A stretch of DNA of 23,990 nucleotides from a virus (IMGVR_UViG_3300009502_000019), one strand, 5' to 3'. Shown: positions 1 through 14,825, counted from the stretch's first letter. Program-made: numbers and translations. Notes: a model not told the origin generated them from the letters alone.

Positions 1-90
1 AGCCACCTCTTCTTGGCTAGCGGCCTTGAAGACTGGATTACCGGACTCAACCATGCTCTTGATAAGTGTAATGTCCTTCTCTAAGCTCAC
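1..90 (-). CDS. Leader/VFKAA-motif protein, 5' part only (runs off left edge)
   Basis: Not in the ORF track. GTG at 88-90 overlaps the TGA of the upstream gene (GTGA). Translates MSLEKDITLIKSMVESGNPVFKAASQEEVA..., the same leader as neighbouring genes. Confidence 0.85.
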   Translation of the reverse strand, partial: MSLEKDITLIKSMVESGNPVFKAASQEEVA

Positions 91-605
91 GATGTGTATT
101 CCTCAGGGTATCCTGAATCAAGCACGTCGAAGATCTTCACGTCCTGTGCGCTGTGCATGTCATCTGAAAACAGGTCGATCTCTTCAAACCTGCTCTGGGC
201 ATCTTCCGGGCTTGCCGCTTCGATAACTGCATAGCACTTGTAGATGAAACGGTAGAGCTTAGTCCCGCGGGCCGCCCGGCGCTTATTTAGCTCCGCCTGG
301 TCAGCTGCCTTGAAAACTGGCTTAGCTTCAGTTACACTAGCTTTGTAAGCATTAACCGCATTTACAATTAACTTTCCGTTCGCTTCCATTTCATCAGAGT
401 CGTACTCATCCCCAAACAACTTAGCAATACGATACTTGCCATCTGCAGACTCAATGATCTTTGGAGATCTCTTAGAAATAGCCCAAGGCCTCTGAGTTGC
501 CGTCACATTTCTACGTGCTTGTGCTTCTTCAGGGCTAGCCGCCTTAAATACAGGCTTAGCTTCCACCATCTTCTTGATCTCTGCTGCGTCTTTAGACAGG
601 CTCAT
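87..605 (-). CDS. Leader/VFKAA-motif protein with two motif copies, each followed by a different small domain
   Basis: MSLSKDAAEIKKMVEAKPVFKAASPEEAQARR..., with an internal VTEAKPVFKAADQAELNKRR. ATGA overlap with the upstream gene. Confidence 0.85.
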   Translation of the reverse strand: MSLSKDAAEIKKMVEAKPVFKAASPEEAQARRNVTATQRPWAISKRSPKIIESADGKYRIAKLFGDEYDSDEMEANGKLIVNAVNAYKASVTEAKPVFKAADQAELNKRRAARGTKLYRFIYKCYAVIEAASPEDAQSRFEEIDLFSDDMHSAQDVKIFDVLDSGYPEEYTS

Positions 606-1294
606 TTAGTCACCATGTTCTTTCTTCTAGTCTCCCAGCCACGTTTAGCTGAGTCACTCTTACCAAACATCGGATTGGCGCTTCCATACCGGTGAACCCC
701 AAACATACCATTGCTTTTGCCTGACTGGTCTGGCCGATTCTCCTTCATTCCCTTCCTAGCTTTCTCTGTATGCCGTCTACCGTACATACCATTATTCTTG
801 CCAACCCTACTCCCAGTAGAGCATCTAACCCAGCCGGCAATAATGTATTCACTAAGCATCTCAGGAGCAATCATACGTCTTTCACCAGTAGCCTTGTTAC
901 GAACATATCGATACGTTTTGCCATACCTAGGACAGTTAGACCCACTCAACTCTCCACGCTTACCCATGCAAAAACAGCACACACAATCACTAGAGTGACG
1001 AGTAAGGCCGCCGCCTCCGTCGCCACCCTCAGATATGTTGTAGAGCTTGTCTGCCCCATACGTAGCTTTGTACTTGGCTATGTGCTCTACTTCAAGCTCG
1101 TTAAGCTCATCCTTAGTTCTTGCATAAGCAATTGGCCTTGTTGTAAAAGCTTTCTTACCATATTTTTTAATTGCACGGTTTATACGCGTGCCCCCTCCGT
1201 GATACCAAGACTCAAAAGCGCCCTTATGCTTACCGACATAAAGCATCCCCGTCGCACTATTTATCGTTTCATATATGTACCCGTAGTTATTCAT
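602..1294 (-). CDS. Free-standing GIY-YIG homing endonuclease (T4 Seg-like) with NUMOD3-like C-terminal repeats
   Basis: GYIYETIN...LYVGKH, AIKKYG, ELNELE...YNISEGGDGG catalytic-domain pattern. C-terminal GKNNGMYGRRHT / GKSNGMFG / GSANPMFGK repeats. Confidence 0.9.
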   Translation of the reverse strand: MNNYGYIYETINSATGMLYVGKHKGAFESWYHGGGTRINRAIKKYGKKAFTTRPIAYARTKDELNELEVEHIAKYKATYGADKLYNISEGGDGGGGLTRHSSDCVCCFCMGKRGELSGSNCPRYGKTYRYVRNKATGERRMIAPEMLSEYIIAGWVRCSTGSRVGKNNGMYGRRHTEKARKGMKENRPDQSGKSNGMFGVHRYGSANPMFGKSDSAKRGWETRRKNMVTK

Positions 1295-1300
1295 AGAGTC

Positions 1301-1576
1301 CTATCGGTAAAAATAGCACATGTTCTCTTCTGGGCTGTAGCACCAACATAAATCTTCTTGGTCGTTGTACCCCCACCGAGGGTTGTGAATGTTCTCGTGT
1401 ACTTCCTCAACTTCACACATCTCGCTAAAAAGATTGCTTGTAAGCTCCATGCTCTCTCTAATAACCTCAGAGAGCTGCTCGTCTGTATAGCCGATCTCTT
1501 CTTCAGCATTGATGCTGTCGGCAACGAAGTACTTCTTCCTGGATTCGATGAGTTCTTTTAATAGTTCCGCGTACAT
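1301..1576 (-). CDS. Hypothetical acidic protein (likely start MYAELLKELIES at 1576)
   Basis: Fills the gap between flanking genes. AGGA Shine-Dalgarno-like sequence upstream of the ATG at 1576; the track's longer start at 1630 overlaps the upstream gene. Confidence 0.7.
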   Translation of the reverse strand: MYAELLKELIESRKKYFVADSINAEEEIGYTDEQLSEVIRESMELTSNLFSEMCEVEEVHENIHNPRWGYNDQEDLCWCYSPEENMCYFYR

Positions 1577-1589
1577 AATTATTCCTATT

Positions 1590-1865
1590 TTATTCAGCAA
1601 CGTAAGTGGCATCGACTGTAACAACGCCATCCGGAGTTATTCTTAAAAACTTATACGTAATGTCTGACGGCATTTCATTCCCAACTAAAGAATCAAGGTG
1701 TTCGTTAAGCTCGTTCACATCCACAAGATTCCAAAGATCAAACTTAAACCTGTGCGTCTTAAAGGGATTGGGTCTCTTAGCCACTTCTTCCCTACTAGCT
1801 GCTTTGAACACAGGCTTAGCTTCAACAAGTTTCTTTATCTCTGAGACATCTTTAGATAGGCTCAT
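1590..1865 (-). CDS. Leader/VFKAA-motif protein (start MSLSKD at 1865)
   Basis: MSLSKDVSEIKKLVEAKPVFKAASREEVAKR followed by a unique ~60-aa domain. The ATG sits 1 nt after the upstream TGA. Confidence 0.85.
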   Translation of the reverse strand: MSLSKDVSEIKKLVEAKPVFKAASREEVAKRPNPFKTHRFKFDLWNLVDVNELNEHLDSLVGNEMPSDITYKFLRITPDGVVTVDATYVAE

Positions 1866-1866
1866 A

Positions 1867-2205
1867 TCACCACACAACCTTATCCATGTTTTCTAAGTCA
1901 TACTCGTAACACTCGCCGCAGCTGGTCGCACTGCGATCGCCTGTCTCGTCGACACCACAATACCCGTCAACAAACTTGCCGTCCTTGAGCTTAGCGTTTT
2001 CTGTAGCCCATTCGTAAGTACACGAGAGAGACGTCGGAACAGCCTCGCAGACGTTGCACCACACCTTGCCTTCTGCTAACGCCTTCTGCTTCGCTGAGGA
2101 CATCACACTCTTACGCTTATCCATATCCTCTGGCCCGGCAGCTTTGAAGACTGGACTTGCCTCAAACATTCTCTTAAGTGATGTCACTGCTTCGTGTAAG
2201 CTCAT
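1867..2205 (-). CDS. Leader/VFKAA-motif protein with a putative Zn-binding domain (CxxC...CxxC)
   Basis: MSLHEAVTSLKRMFEASPVFKAAGPEDMDKR, then EGKVWCNVC...SCGEC. Paralog of 3716..4069. Confidence 0.85.
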   Translation of the reverse strand: MSLHEAVTSLKRMFEASPVFKAAGPEDMDKRKSVMSSAKQKALAEGKVWCNVCEAVPTSLSCTYEWATENAKLKDGKFVDGYCGVDETGDRSATSCGECYEYDLENMDKVVW

Positions 2206-2627
2206 AATGCTATAGCTCCGAGTTCTTTCAGCTCCTGCTTAGCCGTCTCTTCAGGAATAACAGTGTTATCTTCCGAGTAATACTCTATGTCGGTTGAATC
2301 GGCATCAGGAGGAGGAATACTTACTACCATTCGCTTGCCTGATCTTTTGTTAAAGACAATGTAAAATGAATAGCCAAGTGCGTAATATCTAGAGAACGTA
2401 TTCCTTGACGCGTCAGGGCTTGAGATTTCCCACTTAGTACCCTTGCCGTACTCGATCGCAAGTTCCTTAGACTCAAGCTCAACAACCCTCACATCAGCAG
2501 TATCCAGTACGACCCAGGACTTGTAGATCTCCCGACGCGCCACAACCTCTTCCGGGTCGGCCGCTCTAAACACCCAGTTCGCTTCAAACATCTTCTTAAG
2601 TGATGTCACTGCTTCGTATAGATTCAT
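2202..2627 (-). CDS. Leader/VFRAA-motif protein with one copy of a 'YGKGTKW' phage domain of unknown function
   Basis: MNLYEAVTSLKKMFEANWVFRAADPEEVVARR, then AIEYGKGTKW...FSRYYALGYSFYIVFNK, which aligns with both repeats in 2624..3715. Confidence 0.85.
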   Translation of the reverse strand: MNLYEAVTSLKKMFEANWVFRAADPEEVVARREIYKSWVVLDTADVRVVELESKELAIEYGKGTKWEISSPDASRNTFSRYYALGYSFYIVFNKRSGKRMVVSIPPPDADSTDIEYYSEDNTVIPEETAKQELKELGAIAL

Positions 2628-3715
2628 GCAGGAACTCCATATTTAGCCGCCATCTTTTTAAAATTAGCGGGAATCATTCGTTCGTCCCACAGTGTCACCT
2701 TACTGCCACCATCAGCAGGCGGCTGAAGCATCAAGTATTTATGATCATCAATCTTTGAAAACCAGTAATATATGTTGTATCCGCTCATTCCGTAGTAATT
2801 ACCAAATTGATTATCGGAAGGAGCGGCCACAAACCATTCAGTACCCTTACCGAGCTCGATCGCAGTATCCACATCATCTATGTAGTAGATTTTTATCTTA
2901 GGCGAGTCATACACTACACTGGCTTCACCTATTGTGAACTCTTTTGGAGCATACTTATCAAACATCCCAGCTAAATCACTAGCAGACAACCCTAGTTGAC
3001 TAAGGATGGTATCTACCCCCCTGTCATTGCGGTAATAGCCACGGTCTTCCTTTGTCCATAATATCCATTCATACCTAGGCGTGCTAGATGGATCCTCGTG
3101 CCCAAACACGCGAGGTGAAAGCAACCTGTAGGATACCGCAAACTTGTCTGATTCCTCATTAGTAGGATTCTTAGCTAAAATGTAATAGAGCCTCTTGTTT
3201 GCAGTATGGTAGTTACTAAACAGATTGCCTCTTCCCATAGCGGCCGTGCACCACTTAGACCCTCTTCCATAGTAAATAGCTTCGTTCTTATCACGGGGTT
3301 CAATAATCACAACCTTGTCATTGTCAAGTCTCACAATATCTGCTGGGATCTTACCAATCTCTTTAGACCCTTTCCTAAGAGAAGATCCGGTAAATATACC
3401 TTGGGAATCCTCCACTGCTTTCTCCACATCTTGGATGCTTTTATAAGAATATATATCGCTATTCTTAATAATCCCCCGAAAAGCCAAGTCGTGGAACTGC
3501 CGGATAATATCGAACTTTCCTAACTCGGGTGTGGTAATGTATTGCCTGCACATCCACACAAGGTACTTCTTCTGACTGGTCGGATCTTTCTCAGAAAGCT
3601 GCTCAAATGCATCCTCAGCAATCTTCCCCAAGTCAACAAACGTACGTTTAGCGTCTGCATACCCTTCATGCAGCTGAGCCATCACCTGAGTAACGTCGTT
3701 TTCTAAGCTCATCAA
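2624..3715 (-). CDS. Uncharacterised phage protein with a leader-like N-terminus, a DPT..KKY..W domain and two 'YG(R/K)G(S/T)xW' domains
   Basis: MSLENDVTQVMAQLHE leader without VFKAA. Contains KDPTSQKKYLVW, AIYYGRGSKWCTAA...NLFSNY...LYYIL and AIELGKGTEWF...FGNYY...IYYWF. Start is TTG 3715 or ATG 3712. Confidence 0.8.
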   Translation of the reverse strand: MMSLENDVTQVMAQLHEGYADAKRTFVDLGKIAEDAFEQLSEKDPTSQKKYLVWMCRQYITTPELGKFDIIRQFHDLAFRGIIKNSDIYSYKSIQDVEKAVEDSQGIFTGSSLRKGSKEIGKIPADIVRLDNDKVVIIEPRDKNEAIYYGRGSKWCTAAMGRGNLFSNYHTANKRLYYILAKNPTNEESDKFAVSYRLLSPRVFGHEDPSSTPRYEWILWTKEDRGYYRNDRGVDTILSQLGLSASDLAGMFDKYAPKEFTIGEASVVYDSPKIKIYYIDDVDTAIELGKGTEWFVAAPSDNQFGNYYGMSGYNIYYWFSKIDDHKYLMLQPPADGGSKVTLWDERMIPANFKKMAAKYGVPA

Positions 3716-4069
3716 TCACCAATCATTCAGCTTGTCTATTATTTGCTTCTCATTCACTAAATTACCCTGGTAGCAGTCAACGCAGACAATGTAGTTAGGC
3801 TCCTGAACGTTCACCTCTCCCAAGCTAGCGATGGACTTGCCATCGTCTTTAAGCCGTACCTTCTGATTAGCTATACCAAACTCAACCATAAGCGCTCTAG
3901 GAACCTTCATGCAGTCATTGCACCATACCTTGCCCTCGGCAATAGCGGCCTTCTTCTCAGCGGCTATAGGTCCCATGCGCCTGGTTAGTTCATCACCACC
4001 AGCAGCCTTGAAGACGTTGTCAGCTTCCATGATCTTCTTGAGTGATGTAATGTCTTTTTCCAGGCTCAT
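3716..4069 (-). CDS. Leader/VFKAA-motif protein with a putative Zn-binding domain (CxxC...CxxC)
   Basis: MSLEKDITSLKKIMEADNVFKAAGGDELTRR, then EGKVWCNDC...VCVDC. Paralog of 1867..2205. Confidence 0.85.
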   Translation of the reverse strand: MSLEKDITSLKKIMEADNVFKAAGGDELTRRMGPIAAEKKAAIAEGKVWCNDCMKVPRALMVEFGIANQKVRLKDDGKSIASLGEVNVQEPNYIVCVDCYQGNLVNEKQIIDKLNDW

Positions 4070-5763
4070 TGAAAAATCTTCTCCAAGTGATCAACATCCA
4101 CATTCCTAAGTCCCTTACCATCCTGGAACTTGATGTCGGCCCTGACATCGTGCACTACCCAGTTAGTCCCGTAAGTATTTGTGCGCATGTCAGTAACTTT
4201 GCAAAACCTGCGGTAGTACTTGCTTGATGGATTTCCGCCCATGTACATTGCTGTGTCCCCAACCTGAATCTTTGACTCAGGACGCTTAGCTACATCTTCT
4301 GGACTTGCTGCTTTGAACACTTCCTCAGCCGCTTCATTCGTCACAGGAGTCAGGTAATCCTCAGTAGTCCACCTAAAGAAAATAAATGGGTGCACGAACT
4401 TAACTTCGTAACGGTAAAGCACCCCGCCTGTTGAGTCTTCAACAGGGCGATACATCGCTATCGTTCCAATGCGCCCATCCAAGTAATCATCAATGCCGCG
4501 TATTGAAGTGTGGTAGACAACCCGCTGACCATTTTGGAACTTAGGCTGCTTGATCCCACGCCTTGCAAGCTCTTCCTGGTTAGCAGCCTTAAATACTGGC
4601 TTGTTGACTGACTGATGCTTGTAGTCCGTTCCGCTAAGAGTCTCGTGGCTGATCAGATTCTCATCCCCTGCGTTAGGCATCACACCCGCCTCTTCGATCT
4701 TCTCGCCGCGAGCATGTATCGTAGCCGCGATCCAGTCCATGATCGTATCCATGCACTGTGCGCCTATTGCTGACCTGTTCTCATCCCCACCGTGCAGTAC
4801 TAGACCCACCCCGCGACAGCCCACCCTGCGGTAATGTCCAATCCTCTCATCCTTCCCAAAGATTGTGCTTACGTAATACCCGCCGTGGTAGCCATTGTCG
4901 AACTCAACTGTCCACTTAGGAGCATCTGAGTCTGACCAGTCCGACCGGCGCTTGTATAGTAAAACGTCCACGTTCCTCTTGTACTCAGCGTCGTAGAAAG
5001 ACTTGCTTACTTCCCCCGTCTTCCGGTCCAGATCTTCCCTGCGCTTGGCCACATCCTCAGCGCTAGCCGCTTTGAACACATGATCAGCCTCAAAGATACT
5101 CTTTAGGTCCGCAGTCATCCTGCCTACGTTCTTAACTGACTCGTTGTGGACAGGCTCATTATCTTCAGCGTTGTCTCTGTAGACATAAGTACCCTTCTTC
5201 TCGTCGTATACATACTCATCCGCGCCATACCCCTTAACATCAAACGCTAGCTCATAGGCTTCCTTGCTTCCTTCCTCTATGCCAGCGTTGTAGGTCTCAC
5301 TGCCTCCACGATACTCGAGCTCCCCGCAGTTCTGGCCAAAGTCCTCGTCAGCATACCTAACTTTGATAGTGACATCCGGGAACTTCTCGCTAAGTGCTCT
5401 AAAGATAGCGTAAGGAGCCCCCCAAGCAGTATCAAACCGCATCGTATGGTCATCTACCTTCTCTTGGCTGTAGGCATTCCACTTAGTGTCCCAATGCTCA
5501 ATGTTCCAGTTGTACCATCCCTGGTTCCTATATGCCTTCGTCTTAGGAGCCGGGATGATCTTGCCGAAGTCAATCTCGTGGATGTCTACTTTTCTGCGGG
5601 CCACCTCTTCTTCAGAGGCCGCAGCAAATACCACACCAGCCTTGCGAGCCGGAAGTGGCTTACTGGCAAGCGTTGGGTCCACAGGAGAGATGGCAGCAAA
5701 GATCTCTTTTACTCTCTTGGTAGGGCCTTCTATGGTGAGTATGTTCGTTACGTGATTAGGCAT
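4066..5763 (-). CDS. Mosaic multidomain protein: N-terminal YubB/Api92-like (DUF1281-type ferredoxin-like) domain plus three further domains, with four VF(K/A)AA motifs
   Basis: MPNHVTNILTI...IDFGKIIP...WYNWNIEHWDTKWNA...FDTAWGAP...LSEKFP...YADED pattern. Motifs at aa 45, 229, 390 and 482. The last two domains look SH3/KOW-like (KFQNGQRVVY..., KIQVGDTAMY...). Confidence 0.8.
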   Translation of the reverse strand: MPNHVTNILTIEGPTKRVKEIFAAISPVDPTLASKPLPARKAGVVFAAASEEEVARRKVDIHEIDFGKIIPAPKTKAYRNQGWYNWNIEHWDTKWNAYSQEKVDDHTMRFDTAWGAPYAIFRALSEKFPDVTIKVRYADEDFGQNCGELEYRGGSETYNAGIEEGSKEAYELAFDVKGYGADEYVYDEKKGTYVYRDNAEDNEPVHNESVKNVGRMTADLKSIFEADHVFKAASAEDVAKRREDLDRKTGEVSKSFYDAEYKRNVDVLLYKRRSDWSDSDAPKWTVEFDNGYHGGYYVSTIFGKDERIGHYRRVGCRGVGLVLHGGDENRSAIGAQCMDTIMDWIAATIHARGEKIEEAGVMPNAGDENLISHETLSGTDYKHQSVNKPVFKAANQEELARRGIKQPKFQNGQRVVYHTSIRGIDDYLDGRIGTIAMYRPVEDSTGGVLYRYEVKFVHPFIFFRWTTEDYLTPVTNEAAEEVFKAASPEDVAKRPESKIQVGDTAMYMGGNPSSKYYRRFCKVTDMRTNTYGTNWVVHDVRADIKFQDGKGLRNVDVDHLEKIFQ

Positions 5764-5922
5764 CTACTTCTTGTCCTCATTGGCTTTCATAACGTTAAGG
5801 CTAAGCTCCTTAAACGCCTTCTGAAGATCCGCATGATCTCCCACAGCGGTTAACTTGCACTCTAGTGGGTTCTTCTTGTCGTCGTACTTCGTAACTTCAA
5901 ATGTCAGCTCTCTTACAGCCAT
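5764..5922 (-). CDS. Small hypothetical protein, 52 aa (below track cut-off)
   Basis: MAVRELTFEVTKYDDKKNPLECKLTAVGDHADLQKAFKELSLNVMKANEDKK. Its TAG directly abuts the ATG of 4066..5763, and there is an AGGGGG SD upstream. Confidence 0.75.
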   Translation of the reverse strand: MAVRELTFEVTKYDDKKNPLECKLTAVGDHADLQKAFKELSLNVMKANEDKK

Positions 5923-5993
5923 TATTTCCCCCTATCCGGACAGTCTGTCCTAGGGCAACTGCCGCACCTCTTGGAATCGTGAATACAGGACAC
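5922..5993 (-). CDS. Possible 23-aa Cys-rich micro-ORF bridging the portal stop and the next start
   Basis: GTG overlaps the portal TAG (TAGTG). Translates MSCIHDSKRCGSCPRTDCPDRGK. Its TAA overlaps the next ATG (TAATG). Confidence 0.4.
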   Translation of the reverse strand: MSCIHDSKRCGSCPRTDCPDRGK

Positions 5994-8900
5994 TACTTTG
6001 TCCCTTCGTTCAGGGAGGTAACGTTAATGGGAGCATCCTTCCACTGGCTCTCCCACAACTGTCCTGTCTTGTGGTTTGGAAGGGGCGAGCTCAAGTCACT
6101 GATTCGTAGCGACTCCTTACTTTCTCTAAATGGGTTGGTTGCCTCTTGCTCCTCTTCTCCACCTTCAGCTGCTGGCTCTTCTACACCAGGTACAGGAACA
6201 TCTCTATGGTCTCCCTGTATGGCCTTAGCATCACCCTTCAGGTACAAGGTGTCTAAGTCAAGGTCTGACAGCTTAAAGAACTTCTCATTGAAGTACGTAA
6301 GGAGCTCTTTCTTGTTGAGGTCTACTCCAACCATATCCTGAAGCATGTCGTACAAACCGCGGGTGGCATCCACAGACTTCCCTAGTGCGTCCTGGAGCTC
6401 TACCTCTTCTGCACTGGAAGATTGCGACATGTGGATCTGGAAAAGGTCTAGGTCAGGATCGAGGCCTTGCCAAGCAAGGTGTATCTGTGCCATCCTGGTG
6501 AGCCCGTTGATCAAACTTCTCTGTACTCTACGTGCTTGTCTGGCGAACCGGATGTCCATACGCTCTAAGGCTGTACCGCCTTCGAAGCCCCCACCGCCTT
6601 CACCTGAGAATCCCGCGAGGAGCTGCTTTGGGACTTTTAGAGCGGTAATCAACTGATTCTCAAGTTTATCTACGTCAGCGATCCACTTAATATCCGTATC
6701 TCCACCTAGGGTCTCTACCGTGAGGTTGTTGCTGTCTCCCCATACCGGGAATATCAAATCCTCACAACTTGCCATAGCGTTGAAGCGATCCAAGTAGCCT
6801 GGGTTGTTGGAGTCGAGATTGAGTGCTCTAGAGTTATGGACAAAAATACCACAACTCAATGCAAAGTTGTGGTTCTTCTCTGTAGAAATATCATACGTAT
6901 CAACTGTATACGGCAGAACTTCTACACTTATTACTTTATGGTTGAGAACTGTGTGTTTCCGCTTAGCCCAACTAATTTTTCCGCCCAAACTTATTTTCTT
7001 CCTCGATTCAAATGTTTGTTTATGCCCGGGCTTTCCAATATGTGATAATGCAATCTTACGATTATGATCCTGACTATTTTTCTTATTCTTCCTGTGATGG
7101 TATTGAACATACGCTTGATCTGAACTTATCTTACATTCGAATGTTTCACCACAACCGCACCCACAAACCCGAGTCTCTTTAGGTGCTACTGGTTTATTGT
7201 GGTTACCCATCTTTGACTTAGACGCTTTGGCACGAACCTCGGGGCGACCCATCGGATTACTCTGTTTAACTTTATCCGATATTACTTGCATTCGACGGTC
7301 AGTTTCTTTAGTTAATCCGTCATTCCAACTTTTTCTAAAACCTAAGTCATATTGTACCTGTTGGGTCTCCGAAACACTTTTAGCATACTTTGCAACTCTT
7401 TCATCGGTTTCTTTAGTCAATCCTTTATTCCACGCTTGTATAGACCCTCGCTTAGCAATAATCTTATCCGTGAATAAGTGATGAATAGACATGTGGTCAT
7501 GCTTGGTAACAATCTTCAGATTAGACGGGTCATCGTCCAGCTTGTTTTCGTTTTCGTGGTGAACTACACAATCTTTAGGAGTTTTCCCGTCTATACATTC
7601 CGAAACAAGCTTATACACCAACGGGAATTTTCCAGTCTTGGGGTTAAGAACCTGCCGTCTGCCTTCGCTGCTTACCTTAGTATACAATGGCATCAGGCTA
7701 TCACCCTGAACCAAGTCCTTGGCTTCTTTGAAGCTCCCGTCCCTCATCATAAACCTGTGGTCTGGAGTGCATTCGACATACTCTTCATTGTCTAAATGAA
7801 CTCTCATAACAGTAGCATCAACAACTGTCTTAGCGACATCTACAATCTTGTCAGGCTCAATAGCCTTCGTTATTGGATTAACACTGTATACGTATTTTCC
7901 AACATACTTCTCCTTATTTTCAGCCATTTCCTTAATTGTAGGATTAGTATTGTTCAACAAAGCTATTTTGGTGTCACCAACCAAGCAACGTTTGATCTCA
8001 GTCATGTACTGGTCTACCAGGTTAGCTACAGCTTCCGCGTTTGCATTATCTTCTGGGATCGTCACTTTGAAGAGGAAGCGTTGAGGACTTTTCATAATTC
8101 GCGCCATCATGATAGAGTCTTCTGCGAGCCTAAGGCGTTTCCAAATTGGGAGGGCGTCTGCGAGGATGCTTGTGCCGTACTTGGAGGTTAATCGGCGTGC
8201 ATCTGGGGTCATTATACTCACCGTCCTGAACTCGCTGTTGGAAATAAACACACCCGCTGTTACTGGAAAATTGTGGTTGCCTGAAATTTCTATATCGTAA
8301 GTATCCTCTCTTTCAGTTAGCCACTCAACTATGACTACCTTGTGGTTTAGAACAGCGGCCTTCTCTAAATTCTTGGGGCTCACCTTGCATCCCTTGGCAT
8401 GCCCTGCTAATCCTGGATATTTTCCTACCCATTTCTTTCCACAATATTTGCAGGTTAGTTCTTTTATCTCATTTACAGCTTCTTTTATTAGGTTTGTACA
8501 ATGGTGTCTAAATGCTGGGTCTGAGTATGCTTTTTGTTGACCTTCTTTCGTCCTTTTTGCCTGCTTATCGTGATACTCTTTATCGCTCCAAACCTTCTTC
8601 GAGCCTTCTCCAATGTTTCTTTTCCACTCAGTATTTTCATTTCGCTCTTCCATAGCCCGGTTAAACTTATCTCTATAAGCAGGGTCTTCAAATCGTTCTA
8701 CCGCTTTCTGACTAATTTTCTTGCCGTGCTCATCCCACAGCTCAGGATTCTCAGCTTTACTTCGTGCGACCCCATCCTTAACTGACTTTCTATGGGCCTC
8801 TTTCCATTCGGGATCCTGCCTAAGCTCATCTAAGTTATTTGCATGTATCTCCATGTGCTTAGCCTTAGTAACAACCTCTAAACACTTGGGATCATTATTC

Positions 8901-11900
8901 TTCTTATCAAACAACTTTCGTTCATCCCCCCAGTGGTGGACAATACTGCCTTTTGGAGTCTTACCATATGTTTGCTTGGCAACCAGCCTATGAATAAAAT
9001 GCCATTCTCCATCTGCTGGGTTATATACCTGCTGGTAATCCTTAAATCTCTTTCTGGAATCTTCTCGAGTATACAACGGCATTAGGCTCTCTCCCTGGAA
9101 AAGATCCTGCGCTTCCTTGTAGCTACCATCCCTAAGCATAAACTTATGATCTGGTGTGCAGTCAATATGTTGTTCATTATCAAGATGAACACGTACCAGT
9201 TGAGCATCTAGGCGGGTTTTCTTTGCATCTACAATTTGCCCAACCTCAAGATTAAGGGTCTGCGGATTGATTGTTAGTACAGATTTTCCTTTATAGAAAG
9301 CGAGGTTCTCTGTGATTTCTTTTATGGTTGGGGTTGTATTATCTAGAAGATTTATTCGTGTATTTCCAGCTATACAATATTGTTGATCGGCGTATAGTGG
9401 CCTCCGCTTCTTGGCTCCTAAGAGTCTGAAGTGTACATGGTCCCACGGTGCTAGTAACTTACGGGTGTCTGTAGTTGCGTAGCCGAGTGGAGTCTGGAAA
9501 AACCCCACTAATCTTCCGTTGTGATCTACCCTGCTGACGTTGATTGGATGGTTATCATCGTTGACGCATATGAGTCCTACGCCTGGTTCTCCAAAACACT
9601 CTACAAAGAGATCACCGAAAGCTGCTGTAGTCCAGGCCCAATCGTATATGACTTCCTCGATGTTGATCACGTCCAGCATCTTCTCCAGCTGGTAGCGATA
9701 TTCTTTATTGTCAGAAGTTACCCACACAGTTGAACCGTGTAGTGGGGAGCGCTGACAAGCTGTGTCTGCAAATGCGACACACGCCGCGCTATTGTGAACA
9801 AACACTCCGGCGGACAAAGCAAAATTGTGGAATGGCTCTATTGTTAGATCATAGACGTCTGCCACAGCGTTTAGCCTTACAACTTCTTTTACCTTGTGAT
9901 TCCTAATCCCCTTATTCCACGGTGTCCCACCAACCTTAGACTCCGCCATATGCATGACGCGCTCGTCTGTCTCTTTTGTGAGCCCGACGTTCCAACGCGG
10001 CTTAGTCGCATACTTAGCAACTCTAATGTCTTCTTTTGTCAGCCCTTTGTTCCAAGCCGTCTGCCCGATCTTACCCTTATTGTGAGGAGCCCTGCCTCTC
10101 ATTGCGGAGTTCCTACACTCATACGAACACGTCTTACGACGTGGATCCATCAGATCCGTGCATACAGGGCAAGGAACTTTCTTGTGATTGAACTCATAGA
10201 TCCTAATGGCTTCTTCGCGGCTAACCCCATAATGGTTCTGAATGGTACGAATAGCCTGGGCGAACCTGGCTTCCTGTGGCTTCGTGTGAACTGCACTGTG
10301 GTCTTTTTTGGAGAGGATGGAGTGGTTCTCCGGAGAGTCATCTAGTTTATTTAATGCGGAGTCTTTGAAATTTGTGTAAGAGTGGTGGACATGATTACCT
10401 GTACCGCGGTTCTTGTTGAAGTATGTGTACTGGACGCTATAGTGCTTTGGCTCTGCCTGGCGTGCGTTAAATGGGTCGTAGAGCCGCCAATACCCCTTGC
10501 GGTACTCCTTATCCACATACCGGTATAGAGGCATAAGGGAGTCATCTGGCTTAAGCTGCTGGGCTTCCTTGTATGATCCGTCCCTAAGCATGAACCTATG
10601 GTCTAGTGTGCAGCGGATCTCTTCGCCGTTGTCCAAGACAACCTTCAAGATCTCCTTAGTCCCAGTCTTCCAAGCTCGTTTAATCGGGCTACGAACGATC
10701 TTCTTACCGTCTAGGTCTATCGAATAAACATGGTTTACTTTACCCTGTTCATACTCTTTAGCCAACTGCTCCATTGACACATCCCTGCCGTCAAGCAGGG
10801 CGACCTTGGTGTCACCTGTGAAGCACATGAGGGCGTGGTTAAGTGAGCGATCGACTACCTGGTAAACCGAGTTGTGAACAAATACTCCGGCAACCGTTGG
10901 AAAATTGTGGTTACGTTCTGTTGAAATATCGTAAACATCTTCACGAACAGTAAGCGTCTCAACAAATAAAACTTTGTGGTTTTTGAGCGACTTGGTTTTC
11001 TTAACCCCAGTAGTTTTTCGTCTGATAAGCTCTATTACACAATCGCGCTTACTGCACGACTGGCGATTCCCCACTTTGGTCGTAAATTCACATCCGCACA
11101 CAACACACGTTTTAGTCAGGAGGGGTCTACGATATCTTTTGATATTCCAAATAGCCTTTGTTTGCTGTTCCCTGTATTCTGGACTGTTCCATAAAGCCTG
11201 TTGTGCATCTTTACGTTTTTGCAGCCAAAATGGCTTCTGTGCGTTTAGTTTGTTAGCACAGTCTCTGCACACCCTCCAGTCGCTTGTAACAATAACTGTC
11301 TTTGTAAGACCGCATCCGCCCAAACATTCTCTGGTTTCTCTGGGCTTGACCATCTTCCTATGAAGTTTCTGTAAATGCTCCTTGTGACTTACTTCGTTAA
11401 AATGTATCTTGTTGTGGTCGGACTTTGACATCCTTTCCAGACAAGATGGGTCATTGTTTACCTTATCATATTTGCACCGATCGTCTCCCTTGTGGTGCAC
11501 TATCACTCCCTTAGGGCGTTTGCCGTTGAAAAACTTATCAACTAGCCAATGAACGTATGTCCACCCACCCTTCGGCTTGTAAACCATTAAATAATCTTTT
11601 AAAACTTTTGCTGGTTTCTTTAGGTACAAAGGCATCAAACTTTCCCCTTGAGCCAAGTCCTTTGCTTCCTTAAAGGTCCCATTCCTAAGCATAAACTTAT
11701 GGTCTGGTGTGCAGTCAATGTGATTCTCATTGTCTAGATGAACGCGAATCATCTCTGCATTTAGGCGAGTTTTTGTTGCGGCTAATATCTTATCTGGCTC
11801 GATTTCAAGCGTGGTTGGATTAACTGAAAGAACGTACTTCCCAACATAGTCTTGGTTGTTCTCAGCCATCTCTTTGATTGTTGGAGTAGTTCCGTCTAGG

Positions 11901-12112
11901 AGGGAAATTCTAGTGTCCCCACGAAGGCAGCTGCGTTCGTAGATGATGAGGTTTTGGTCTGAGATGACCTGGCGGAGAGCTTCGTTGGATATCCCATACG
12001 CCTTCCACATATCCGCGTCTTCTTTGGAGGTTGCTACTTTCTTTACTTCTGGCGGGGTGACTGGGGTGCGTTCAGGAACTAACTTTTGGCGTAGAAACTT
12101 TAGGATATCCAT
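5993..12112 (-). CDS. Portal protein (T4 gp20-like) precursor containing four inteins; predicted mature protein 576 aa
   Basis: Joined exteins (61+15+138+83+279 aa) give T4 gp20-like motifs: LNHALMSAACVAFADTA, HVHFRL, YGTSILADALPIWKRLRLAEDSIMMARIMKSPQRFLFKV, EDLIFP...ETLGG, LITALKVP, IRFARQARRVQ. Confidence 0.9.
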   Translation of the reverse strand: MDILKFLRQKLVPERTPVTPPEVKKVATSKEDADMWKAYGISNEALRQVISDQNLIIYERSCLRGDTRISLLDGTTPTIKEMAENNQDYVGKYVLSVNPTTLEIEPDKILAATKTRLNAEMIRVHLDNENHIDCTPDHKFMLRNGTFKEAKDLAQGESLMPLYLKKPAKVLKDYLMVYKPKGGWTYVHWLVDKFFNGKRPKGVIVHHKGDDRCKYDKVNNDPSCLERMSKSDHNKIHFNEVSHKEHLQKLHRKMVKPRETRECLGGCGLTKTVIVTSDWRVCRDCANKLNAQKPFWLQKRKDAQQALWNSPEYREQQTKAIWNIKRYRRPLLTKTCVVCGCEFTTKVGNRQSCSKRDCVIELIRRKTTGVKKTKSLKNHKVLFVETLTVREDVYDISTERNHNFPTVAGVFVHNSVYQVVDRSLNHALMCFTGDTKVALLDGRDVSMEQLAKEYEQGKVNHVYSIDLDGKKIVRSPIKRAWKTGTKEILKVVLDNGEEIRCTLDHRFMLRDGSYKEAQQLKPDDSLMPLYRYVDKEYRKGYWRLYDPFNARQAEPKHYSVQYTYFNKNRGTGNHVHHSYTNFKDSALNKLDDSPENHSILSKKDHSAVHTKPQEARFAQAIRTIQNHYGVSREEAIRIYEFNHKKVPCPVCTDLMDPRRKTCSYECRNSAMRGRAPHNKGKIGQTAWNKGLTKEDIRVAKYATKPRWNVGLTKETDERVMHMAESKVGGTPWNKGIRNHKVKEVVRLNAVADVYDLTIEPFHNFALSAGVFVHNSAACVAFADTACQRSPLHGSTVWVTSDNKEYRYQLEKMLDVINIEEVIYDWAWTTAAFGDLFVECFGEPGVGLICVNDDNHPINVSRVDHNGRLVGFFQTPLGYATTDTRKLLAPWDHVHFRLLGAKKRRPLYADQQYCIAGNTRINLLDNTTPTIKEITENLAFYKGKSVLTINPQTLNLEVGQIVDAKKTRLDAQLVRVHLDNEQHIDCTPDHKFMLRDGSYKEAQDLFQGESLMPLYTREDSRKRFKDYQQVYNPADGEWHFIHRLVAKQTYGKTPKGSIVHHWGDERKLFDKKNNDPKCLEVVTKAKHMEIHANNLDELRQDPEWKEAHRKSVKDGVARSKAENPELWDEHGKKISQKAVERFEDPAYRDKFNRAMEERNENTEWKRNIGEGSKKVWSDKEYHDKQAKRTKEGQQKAYSDPAFRHHCTNLIKEAVNEIKELTCKYCGKKWVGKYPGLAGHAKGCKVSPKNLEKAAVLNHKVVIVEWLTEREDTYDIEISGNHNFPVTAGVFISNSEFRTVSIMTPDARRLTSKYGTSILADALPIWKRLRLAEDSIMMARIMKSPQRFLFKVTIPEDNANAEAVANLVDQYMTEIKRCLVGDTKIALLNNTNPTIKEMAENKEKYVGKYVYSVNPITKAIEPDKIVDVAKTVVDATVMRVHLDNEEYVECTPDHRFMMRDGSFKEAKDLVQGDSLMPLYTKVSSEGRRQVLNPKTGKFPLVYKLVSECIDGKTPKDCVVHHENENKLDDDPSNLKIVTKHDHMSIHHLFTDKIIAKRGSIQAWNKGLTKETDERVAKYAKSVSETQQVQYDLGFRKSWNDGLTKETDRRMQVISDKVKQSNPMGRPEVRAKASKSKMGNHNKPVAPKETRVCGCGCGETFECKISSDQAYVQYHHRKNKKNSQDHNRKIALSHIGKPGHKQTFESRKKISLGGKISWAKRKHTVLNHKVISVEVLPYTVDTYDISTEKNHNFALSCGIFVHNSRALNLDSNNPGYLDRFNAMASCEDLIFPVWGDSNNLTVETLGGDTDIKWIADVDKLENQLITALKVPKQLLAGFSGEGGGGFEGGTALERMDIRFARQARRVQRSLINGLTRMAQIHLAWQGLDPDLDLFQIHMSQSSSAEEVELQDALGKSVDATRGLYDMLQDMVGVDLNKKELLTYFNEKFFKLSDLDLDTLYLKGDAKAIQGDHRDVPVPGVEEPAAEGGEEEQEATNPFRESKESLRISDLSSPLPNHKTGQLWESQWKDAPINVTSLNEGTK
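6833..7987 (-). mobile_element. Intein 4 (385 aa, class 1) with an HNH-like endonuclease and WNKGLTKE repeats
   Basis: Begins CLVGDTKIALLN, has CTPDH, ends YDIST...HNF...VHN followed by Ser+1. Contains VVHHENENKLDDDPSNL...HMSIHH, WNKGLTKETDERV and CGCGCGETF. Confidence 0.93.
8237..9376 (-). mobile_element. Intein 3 (380 aa, class 1, non-canonical penultimate Ser) with an HNH endonuclease
   Basis: Begins CIAGNTRINLLD, has CTPDH, ends YDIEI...HNF...VFISN followed by Ser+1. HNH region IHRLVA...IVHH...NNDPKCLE...HMEIH, then helical repeats and CKYC...H...C. Confidence 0.92.
9791..10825 (-). mobile_element. Intein 2 (345 aa, class 1) with an HNH-like endonuclease and WNKGLTKE repeats
   Basis: Begins CFTGDTKVALLD, has block B CTLDH, ends YDLTI...HNF...VHN followed by Ser+1. 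Contains HVHH...NKLDDSPEN...HSAVH, CPVC/CSYEC and WNKGLTKE repeats. Confidence 0.93.
10871..11929 (-). mobile_element. Intein 1 (353 aa, class 1) with an HNH endonuclease and Cys-rich C-terminal module
   Basis: Begins C1 (CLRGDTRISLLD), has block B CTPDH, ends YDIS...HNF...VHN followed by Ser+1. HNH region VHWLV...VIVHH...NNDPSCLE...HNKIH. Also CLGGCG, CRDC, CVVCGC. Confidence 0.93.
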
Positions 12113-13799: not shown

Positions 13800-14386
13800 G
13801 CCACAGCCTCCTTCTGCTGGTCTGCAAGGCCGGCGTCCTTCATACGCGTCTCTTTTGGAAAATAGTCCTCTTCAAACTTCCACTTGTGGTCATAAAACCC
13901 TTCGTTTAAGAAGCCCCTAAGATCTTTCAAGTCGCACACGATCTCGAGATCATCCTTAGAAAAAACGAGCGGGAAGTCCCTGTCGGCGATCGTCCTGGTC
14001 CCGTCAAGCCTGATCCGGTACTGCGGATGAAAATAACAGTGAATGGGCTCACCATGCTTAGCGTATATGTCTATCTCGAAATTGTTGTCGTAGTTAAACT
14101 CTACATGAACCTCGCCGTTACATGAAGGACACGTAAAGATCTCAAAACTCCTGTTGTTAAAGAACCCGAGGTTATCCATGCACCAACCGCACAACTCAAG
14201 AAGAACATTAGCCGCGAACTTCAGCGTCTTAACACTGACCTCTTCAGCGTTGTAGCTATCCCAGTTAGGCTCATTGCAGTCAATGACAAACGCCCCGACC
14301 CTCTTGATCTGCTCACTAAACTTCTTACGTATGAACTCCGTCTGCCAGGAGACATTTGTCATGTGAAGATTGTTATCTACGTTCAT
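13796..14386 (-). CDS. Hypothetical phage protein
   Basis: 196-aa ORF with an NWDSYNA motif and CPSC. ATGA coupling on both sides. Confidence 0.7.
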   Translation of the reverse strand: MNVDNNLHMTNVSWQTEFIRKKFSEQIKRVGAFVIDCNEPNWDSYNAEEVSVKTLKFAANVLLELCGWCMDNLGFFNNRSFEIFTCPSCNGEVHVEFNYDNNFEIDIYAKHGEPIHCYFHPQYRIRLDGTRTIADRDFPLVFSKDDLEIVCDLKDLRGFLNEGFYDHKWKFEEDYFPKETRMKDAGLADQQKEAVA

Positions 14387-14562
14387 GATTTACAACCTTT
14401 CCTGTTGCCGTACCGTTTTACTGGGGATCCCGGAACACCAAAATCAGACTCCTCGTACTTCCTCCACAAGACATCCAAAAAGTCCTTGTAGTGACTCACG
14501 AATCTAACATTACTCCCATACAACTGCACATAAGCCCCGACATCCGTCATTCCGTATTTCAT
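14383..14562 (-). CDS. Small hypothetical protein, 59 aa (below track cut-off)
   Basis: MKYGMTDVGAYVQLYGSNVRFVSHYKDFLDVLWRKYEESDFGVPGSPVKRYGNRKGCKS. Exact ATGA overlaps at both ends. Confidence 0.75.
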   Translation of the reverse strand: MKYGMTDVGAYVQLYGSNVRFVSHYKDFLDVLWRKYEESDFGVPGSPVKRYGNRKGCKS

Positions 14563-14825
14563 ATCTCACCCTTCGTCTCGTAAGACTCTGTGTCAACGTT
14601 GTATGCCTCAAGCCAGAACTCATTACCATCTGAGAAAACCTTAAGCATTCCTGTATCTATAAGCTGCATCAGTGCAGTCTCGGTAGCCTCCTTAGGAAGC
14701 CTAAGATATTCGTAAAATCCGTATGTGTCACAAAACAGCTCGATAAGATTCATCATGATAGTTCTCTCAGGCTCCTTGAGCTCTCCAACGCGACATTTAG
14801 GAATTTCCAGCTTTCGGTAGCCCAT
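14559..14825 (-). CDS. Hypothetical protein
   Basis: 88-aa ORF with operon packing; no function recognised. Confidence 0.65.
   Translation of the reverse strand: MGYRKLEIPKCRVGELKEPERTIMMNLIELFCDTYGFYEYLRLPKEATETALMQLIDTGMLKVFSDGNEFWLEAYNVDTESYETKGEI

Follow-up and report, generated by a model that had tools for sequence, protein, structure and literature searches.

The window analyzed herein is a stretch of 23,990 nucleotides of viral DNA that forms the end of an 83.6-kb IMG/VR record (IMGVR_UViG_3300009502_000019). Its first 5.8 kb contain the portal-proximal part of an array of genes whose otherwise unrelated protein products share a 15-residue N-terminal peptide, which we term the leader, and, shortly downstream of it, a 13-residue peptide, which we term the tag, and we propose that these proteins are candidate cargo of the phage head. 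The array genes all lie on the minus strand and are tightly packed behind the portal gene, mostly with 4-nt overlaps. A consensus scan found no sigma-70-like promoter on the coding strand of the stretch and one weak terminator-like site within it. The features of this part of the array are given below in window positions; the open reading frames (ORFs) are from a simple ORF caller, and their counts are therefore approximate (a slash in a motif marks the predicted cut, and aa stands for amino acids).

5993..12112, minus strand: portal gene of the T4 gp20 family with four HNH inteins, 2039 aa (Pfam Portal_T4, PF07230, 3e-23; Intein_splicing, four copies, 2e-84); upstream border of the array
5764..5922, minus strand: 52-aa ORF, first after the portal gene, without leader or tag (ORF list; no family match)
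4066..5763, minus strand: 565-aa multi-unit protein with an N-terminal DUF1281/Api92-like domain (Pfam DUF1281_C, 2e-16)
3716..4069, minus strand: 117-aa putative cargo gene; leader 4025-4069, tag 3977-4015, small Cys-rich domain (profile E 3e-18)
2624..3712, minus strand: 362-aa leader-only gene; leader ending LHE, without tag (phrog_17056/28193)
2202..2627, minus strand: 141-aa putative cargo gene; variant leader MNLYEAVT...MFE, tag VFRAA 2535-2573 (profile E 2e-17)
1867..2205, minus strand: 112-aa putative cargo gene; leader, tag 2113-2151, Cys-rich domain (profile E 5e-19)
1590..1865, minus strand: 91-aa putative cargo gene; leader, tag 1773-1811 (profile E 2e-20)
1301..1630, minus strand: 109-aa ORF within the array, without leader or tag (ORF list, Pfam scan)
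602..1294, minus strand: GIY-YIG/NUMOD3 homing endonuclease gene, untagged, inserted in the array (phrog_314, 1e-26; NUMOD3)
87..605, minus strand: 172-aa two-unit putative cargo gene; leader, tag 513-551, internal VTE/A junction, second tag 279-317
1..90, minus strand: 5' part of the next putative cargo gene, GTG start, leader and tag; truncated by the window edge

Eleven tag copies lie in the window, four of them in the 565-aa protein and two in the 172-aa protein. In the former, a degenerate tag, VFAAA (5593-5631), sits within a loop of the DUF1281/Api92-like domain, and three more tags (5041-5079, 4558-4596, and 4282-4320) each follow a hydrophobic-x-Glu motif (h-x-E, where h is a hydrophobic residue) and stand ahead of another small domain. 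The gene at 3716-4069 is a paralogue of that at 1867-2205, and a virus-only domain occurs twice in the 362-aa leader-only protein and also in the product of the gene at 2202-2627. The initial annotation had named seven genes in this region, and all seven are present, six with leader and VFKAA tag and the seventh (2624-3712) with the leader only. Its limits for the array, positions 1-5763, had to be abandoned, as the array runs ~24 kb further on a second contig.

This contig, IMGVR_UViG_3300009502_002976 (G001, 66.8 kb), was found through its many further tag copies, and its first 73 bp are identical to the last 73 bp of the record that contains the window. Joined, the two contigs represent 150 kb of one phage, an uncultured, T4-related jumbo phage with a genome of roughly 215 kb. 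The array extends over 29.5 kb, from the stop codon of the portal gene to a gene encoding a 704-aa protease-scaffold protein, with positions 1-22561 of G001 making up its remainder; G001 also carries the protease-scaffold, capsid, tail sheath, tube, and baseplate genes. Among the 39 ORFs of the array, 15 have leader and tag, five have the leader only, three have the tag only, and 16 have neither, the last group including homing endonucleases and a papain-family (C1) cysteine peptidase (G001 13816-14676; Pfam 3e-13). A profile of 36 positions that covers leader and tag has 43 matches in the available 150 kb.

Leader, tag, and internal junctions

The leader has the form M-S-[LF]-E-x-D-[IV]-T-x-I-K-K-[LM]-x-E and is an amphipathic helix with an invariant Glu15, and since P3 is L, M, I, V, or F, every leader ends in h-x-E. 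The tag lies 1-4 residues past the leader and reads [VIL]-F-[KR]-[AP]-A-[SGT]-x-[ED]-[EDQ]-h-x-[KR]-R, so that VFKAA, the string by which it had been described, was found as such and is one version of a more general [VIL]-F-K-[AP]-A. In 34 tag copies of this phage F(+1), A(+3), A(+4), and R(+12) never vary, with Ala encoded by all four of its codons and Arg by five. The codons of the leader show the same synonymous scatter, and the DNA upstream of the leaders is not conserved. Because the invariant residues use scattered synonymous codons, selection acts on the peptide, as the initial annotation had concluded for VFKAA, and because neither the upstream DNA nor the codons are conserved, leader and tag are not translation signals.

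Nine orthologues with 31-48% identity retain M1, S2, D6, E15, F20, A23, and R31 of the leader and tag, which are invariant to the same degree as the zinc-binding Cys residues. In an AlphaFold2 model of one 126-aa tagged protein, the leader helix spans residues 3-15, VFKAA is extended, a new helix begins from residue 25 at a Gly/Ser-Pro cap, and the zinc-ribbon domain is well folded and separate from the label. Leader and tag are separable elements; no Pfam family covers the label that they form, and a literature search with tag strings returned no relevant paper. Two putative cargo genes ~21 kb apart, 3716-4069 in the window and L005:5934-6041 (G001 16124-), have their first 23 codons, comprising leader and tag, in common, with a single synonymous difference within the first 16, and this near-identity of the DNA points to recent events at the tags, either duplication or gene conversion.

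Tags are also found within proteins, and these internal copies show the same association with a potential cleavage site as the leader does. For 162 internal tags in 150 representative proteins from a database search with the profile, h-x-E is present 1-6 residues ahead of the tag in 153 (94%), as compared to 27% at random positions of the same proteins, with V, L, or I at P3 in 133 of the junctions and mostly A, D, or S at P1', and all 162 tags have both F(+1) and R(+12). The gp21-type ending that the initial annotation had recognized in the leaders is therefore shared by the internal junctions, and the match to the L/I-x-E rule of this protease leads us to define the repeated module as a cut site followed by a tag and a small domain.

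Distribution in relatives and the cassette-like behavior of units

When compared to 1.84 billion proteins, the profile retrieved 219 representative proteins at E<=0.001, a number that falls to 69 at E<=1e-10 (best E 1e-64), with up to nine tags per protein. The commonest forms of the tag are IFKPA, the top form in relatives, IFKAA, VFKAA, VFKPA, and LFKPA. The leaders differ by lineage and always end in h-x-E, and they include the MSLEKDIT type, a MDIHTAI...NE type, 10-residue MRELIEAIQE forms, and stretches of 4-9 residues. The genomic context of the distant members is mostly that of short contigs. In a relative with 69-70% capsid identity, a gene upstream of that for the protease encodes a chain of 1345 aa in which the tag takes an IFKGA form. 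No match to the stretch was obtained by blastn against cultured phages, tblastn of a nine-tag protein against the cultured phages of INPHARED gave single-domain homologues and no tagged arrays, and a scan of metagenome contigs with a DNA pattern for the tag gave single chance matches only.

The most informative relative is a complete genome (G002, 215 kb; capsid protein 82% identical), which has an equivalent array between its portal and protease genes. It contains 47 profile matches, 39 of them in the head module, and every leader-containing match is located in that module, as is also the case for the two contigs analyzed herein. The tagged genes and profile matches account for 13-14% of each genome. 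Within G002 (111800-113200) there are, in addition, three consecutive small ORFs (starts 444, 663, and 884 of stretch L074) that each open with a tag and continue with pieces homologous to the phage's own major capsid protein, namely residues 250-313, residues 18-61 (the propeptide, 66% identical), and residues 435-463; these tagged capsid-fragment ORFs are absent from the genome that contains the window.

Cutting the arrays of both genomes at the tags yields 105 units with a median length of ~110 aa, 53 of which lack a homologue in either array. Several of the homologous units are free-standing in one genome and part of a multi-unit protein in the other, and the tag plus its domain thus behaves as a cassette. 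At E<=0.001, Pfam gave no match in ten multi-unit relatives and only DUF1281_C among the tagged proteins of the window, and no Pfam peptidase domain was found within any tagged protein. The fast turnover of units between two such close genomes suggests that most of them are host-directed or counter-defense proteins. One cargo-type unit of a relative's 1150-aa chain (P0002, residues 117-240) has homologues, all hypothetical proteins, in the T4-like Acinetobacter phages Acj9 and Acj61, in Aeromonas phages, and in Lak megaphages.

Head maturation genes and a proposed route of delivery

The T4-like setting assumed in the initial annotation is borne out by the genes on either side of the array. The portal belongs to the gp20 family, and the first large genes past the array encode the 704-aa protease-scaffold fusion and then a major capsid protein of the gp23 family (PF07068, 2e-30). 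The N-terminal domain of the 704-aa protein matches phrog_207, annotated by PHROG as "head maturation protease," and gives tblastn matches to annotated prohead core scaffold/protease genes of PA5oct, Rak2-like phages, SP-15, and a cyanophage; a word-index protein search with this domain returned one match. An AlphaFold2 model of residues 1-215 (mean confidence score, pLDDT, 75) has the T4 gp21 protease 5JBL as its sole significant match in the PDB (E 1e-6, probability 1.00, template modeling score by target 0.63). The Pfam S77 model found no match on either contig and phmmer found none for the protease among PDB sequences, so its kinship to gp21 became apparent through the fold search only. 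Beyond the protease domain, the 704-aa protein is charged, largely helical, and scaffold-like.

Sites that conform to the cleavage rule are conserved in these head proteins. The capsid protein has L8-V9-E10-S11 and L61-L62-E63 without variation in five relatives, and the position of E63 is near the end of the propeptide of T4 gp23, which has 65 residues. An L-L-E directly past the protease domain is likewise kept in all five relatives. The scaffold-like region of the fusion (L014:227-2341) has seven more h-x-E-[AS] sites. Several conserved tagless proteins of the head module (L015, L011) have other amphipathic N-termini that end in h-x-E, such as MDLHKFIGETLKINE and MRINELFDELKKINLAE, and by their sequences these look like further targeting propeptides. 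The gene directly past the capsid gene (G001 26285-27049; also in G002, L022:11905-12789) encodes a protein with a leader and no tag, together with NUMOD3 motifs and a TnsA-like endonuclease domain, and thus specifies a nuclease that may be loaded into the head.

We propose that the array is a set of head-cargo genes, each unit of which would be a small domain that is usually unrelated to the others, and that the 15-residue leader would act as a capsid targeting sequence (CTS) of the T4 kind that takes the cargo into the prohead core. The gp21-type prohead protease would then cut after the Glu of every h-x-E site, and these cuts would remove the leader and separate the multi-unit proteins into their individual domains, whose small size would allow them to stay in the head and then to be ejected into the next host. 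Every released unit would open, within 1-4 residues, with the tag as a retained N-terminal handle, which is predicted to consist of an extended [VIL]-F-K-[AP]-A and a capped helix ending in the invariant Arg. The conservation of the tag across lineages with differing leaders points to a conserved partner, which may belong to the head and serve retention or loading, or may be a cytoplasmic factor encountered after injection. We give loading of the T4 type followed by cutting into single domains by the prohead protease a probability of about 0.55.

Several points weigh against this proposal. We infer packaging, cleavage, ejection, expression timing, and the role of the tag from the genes of an uncultured phage, and the leader of this genome has no significant similarity to the T4 CTS. 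The pre-tag stretch in some relatives, at 4-9 residues (MLNE/D...), is too short for a targeting helix, and loading might thus be signaled by the tag instead of the leader. The essential substrates of the protease, the capsid protein and the protease itself, have no tag, which is therefore not needed for cleavage, and the proposal leaves the purpose of the tag unexplained. Confinement of the label to genes of the structural operon, which the initial annotation had envisaged, holds for the leader and fails for the tag, in that tag-only genes are found outside the head module, eight in G002, including two on the opposite strand, and two in this genome, of which one lies directly upstream of the phage GroES gene (the phage encodes both GroES and GroEL). 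Lastly, a distant 70-kb contig (G005, ~39% of a genome) has a tag array and no portal, capsid, or protease gene on it. One co-folding job that combined leader and tag with the capsid protein and the protease domain scored 0.07 relative to a mark of 0.32 and is counted neither for nor against binding. We also considered the tag as an exosite required by the protease and rejected this, in view of the capsid and protease sites that lack a tag and of the natively N-terminal tags that have no site before them.

The tag-only genes agree with the proposed cleavage and also allow other readings of the tag. In those located elsewhere in G002, the tag begins 3-7 residues from the initiator Met, as in M-K-P-I-F-K-A-A, which is the place that cleavage after Glu would leave to it in the array proteins (E/A-K-P-V-F-K-A-A). 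We tentatively entertain the idea, as a possibility of lesser probability than the T4-type route, that the tag is a new N-terminal address independent of head loading, silent in the precursors, unmasked by the prohead protease, and acting after injection, and that it is used directly on phage proteins that are not packaged, including the tagged capsid-protein fragments. An unmasked tag of this kind might be a timer degron or a signal that hands effectors to a conserved host or phage hub, and with the leader it would constitute a modular code, open to recombination, for the delivery of dozens of effectors. A related and rather doubtful proposal places the action of the tag in the cytoplasm more generally, as a handle that needs a free N-terminus, be it a degron or unfoldase tag or a chaperone or localization signal, which would be native in the tag-only genes and, in packaged cargo, unmasked by the head protease and active only after injection. 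The position of the tag, in every case at a distance of 1-7 residues from an actual or a predicted N-terminus, agrees with this, as do the tag-only genes in non-structural regions, with one next to GroES/GroEL, and a cross-lineage conservation strong enough to fit a conserved and possibly host partner. The tag may also resemble one class of ClpX recognition signals, reported by Flynn and colleagues in 2003 as polar-hydrophobic-hydrophobic-basic-x near the N-terminus. A handle of this type leaves the invariant Arg at +12 and the capped helix unexplained, however. The roles of the two peptides could also be the reverse of those that we propose, with the tag as the loading or retention signal that docks units to a conserved head part (the inner face of the capsid, the core, or the portal), much as the cargo peptides of encapsulins do, and that keeps small units from leaking after cleavage, and with the leader as an accessory propeptide. 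We regard this as doubtful. Every unit bears the tag, even where the unit is internal or the gene leaderless, the tag is kept across lineages with wholly different leaders (MDIHTAI...NE, MRELIEAIQE), the stretch before it is as short as four residues in some proteins, and the fragments of the T4 scaffold and its propeptides exit the head after cleavage, so small units may need an anchor. However, five array genes per genome have only the leader, several conserved head proteins have leader-like N-termini and no tag, one degenerate tag sits in a domain loop, and the docking partner is hypothetical.

The remaining alternatives question cargo or peptide function altogether. That the array proteins are not virion cargo, and are instead cytoplasmic proteins or polyproteins that merely adjoin head genes, with any processing carried out by another enzyme and with N-termini shared for translation, folding, or assembly of another structure, appears unlikely to us. 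Packaging is a prediction, and tags do occur outside the head module and in G005 in an array with no head genes nearby, but in the complete genome G002 the leader is strictly within the portal-to-capsid module, and the hydrophobic-x-Glu rule fits the encoded gp21-type protease, such sites being invariant in the capsid propeptide. We consider it highly improbable that F-K/A-A is itself a cleavage site of the C1 peptidase of the array, with Phe at P2 and Lys or Arg at P1. Phe-Arg/Lys is the classic P2-P1 pair of papain-type enzymes, and in addition to the gene in the array a C1 peptidase gene of the same kind is found near a tagged polyprotein in an ENA contig. However, the commonest form of the tag is F-K-P-A, in which Pro at P1' makes a poor site, the Lys gives way to Gln or Glu in some copies, and G003, which has a peptidase gene of this kind, shows no tag in the parts examined. 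On co-occurrence the candidate was rejected, since G002 has 47 tag matches and no C1 peptidase. We see very little likelihood, too, that the shared 5' ends act at the DNA level, as recombination substrates in the shuffling of cassettes, and have no function in the protein. The shuffling of units between stand-alone and fused forms and the nearly identical leader-tag DNA of 3716-4069 and G001 16124- would suit such substrates, but the invariant residues occur in all of their synonymous codons, the tag residues persist in orthologues at 31-48% identity, and the peptide motif of the internal junctions is kept across distant lineages. Recombination may ride on the tags and cannot explain them.

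Relation to known systems and further features of the locus

The cleavage specificity of gp21 is L/I-x-E and was first observed at a Glu-Ala bond (PMC9026906). In T4, cargo is directed to the core by propeptides of 10-19 residues, which are cleaved off afterwards, and a change of Glu to Asp at the sites prevents processing while targeting persists. The array proteins resemble the T4 proteins with a CTS (IPI, IPII, IPIII, and Alt) in having a short N-terminal propeptide that ends in hydrophobic-x-Glu on otherwise unrelated, fast-evolving proteins, in a phage that encodes homologues of gp20, gp21, and gp23. The initial annotation saw a two-element system independent of that of T4, and the separability of the two elements supports the former part of this claim. 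Independence may not hold, in that MRELIEAIQE/A of the relatives and MKTYQEFIAE/A of T4 have M1, E6, I8, and E10 in common (4/10), together with K or R at position 2 and Ala at P1', a comparison that is too short for statistics. The 15-residue leader of this genome, on the other hand, cannot be aligned with the T4 CTS. The system also differs from that of T4 in scale, with ~23 tagged genes, a leader on ~20 genes, and >40 profile matches per genome as against four T4 proteins, in the second, retained tag of 13 residues that has no T4 counterpart, in the multi-unit proteins with up to nine repeated junctions of site and tag, and in the clustering of the genes between those for portal and protease. 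The IP and alt genes of T4 are not clustered in this way and are located elsewhere.

Other phages show parts of this arrangement. In phiKZ, 201phi2-1, and SPN3US (gp175/gp245 proteases, S/A/G-x-E) many head-internal proteins are cut after Glu by a gp21-related protease, substrates often have several cleavage sites, and there are paralogues with conserved N-termini (SPN3US gp53/gp54). These giant phages are of a different lineage, however, their propeptides are mostly >100 residues and family-specific, and they have no universal short leader, retained tag, or chains of unrelated domains. The diverse host-directed proteins of the P1 Dar system (DarA, DarB, Hdf, DdrA/B) are placed in the head in a loading order tied to capsid morphogenesis; their loading depends on specific protein-protein hierarchies, and they are not known to have a common leader or tag. 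Encapsulin cargo-loading peptides, which are a possible analogy for the tag, are short conserved peptides on unrelated cargo that is docked inside an HK97-fold shell, but they are usually C-terminal, single, and uncleaved, and docking to the capsid is hypothetical in the present case. Polyvalent proteins (Iyer, Burroughs, Anand, de Souza, Aravind 2017; PMC5512222) comprise 2-15 domains and have genes that adjoin those of the virion, and it is predicted that they are packaged and injected and that cutting yields their active parts. The array has a similar virion-gene context, between the portal and protease/capsid genes. Polyvalent proteins differ in that they contain recognizable effector families and their own peptidase domains, with no conserved junction peptide described, whereas the units of the array are almost without Pfam matches and would be cut by the prohead protease at a repeated junction motif.

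The array most likely represents a much enlarged, two-part, and chainable version of T4 targeting and cleavage, with a retained tag that has not been described previously. To our knowledge the T4 CTS is the only well-understood phage route for loading foreign proteins into heads, and it is already in use for engineered delivery particles. If the proposal is correct, >40 units per genome illustrate the possible reach of phage-injected protein arsenals, and chained units with a repeated cut-here junction and a second, retained tag extend the logic of T4. There would then be a sequence rule by which injected effectors could be recognized in uncultured jumbo phages, namely a leader ending in h-x-E followed by F-K-[AP]-A...R, as well as a compact junction module for the engineering of multi-cargo packaging.

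Three features of the locus and its relatives are of lesser importance. Next to the tag array of G005 (65081-70075), the ORF at 3559-4665 (368 aa) has a glycine-rich GSGQAG motif that is, by eye, reminiscent of tubulin/FtsZ-like proteins. The window has four single-base differences from the stored genome record (5564, 13532, 14759, and 15373), one of which changes Gly to Asp in the 565-aa protein. Finally, because four HNH-endonuclease inteins interrupt the portal gene, only ~28% of the ORF at 5993-12112 is extein.

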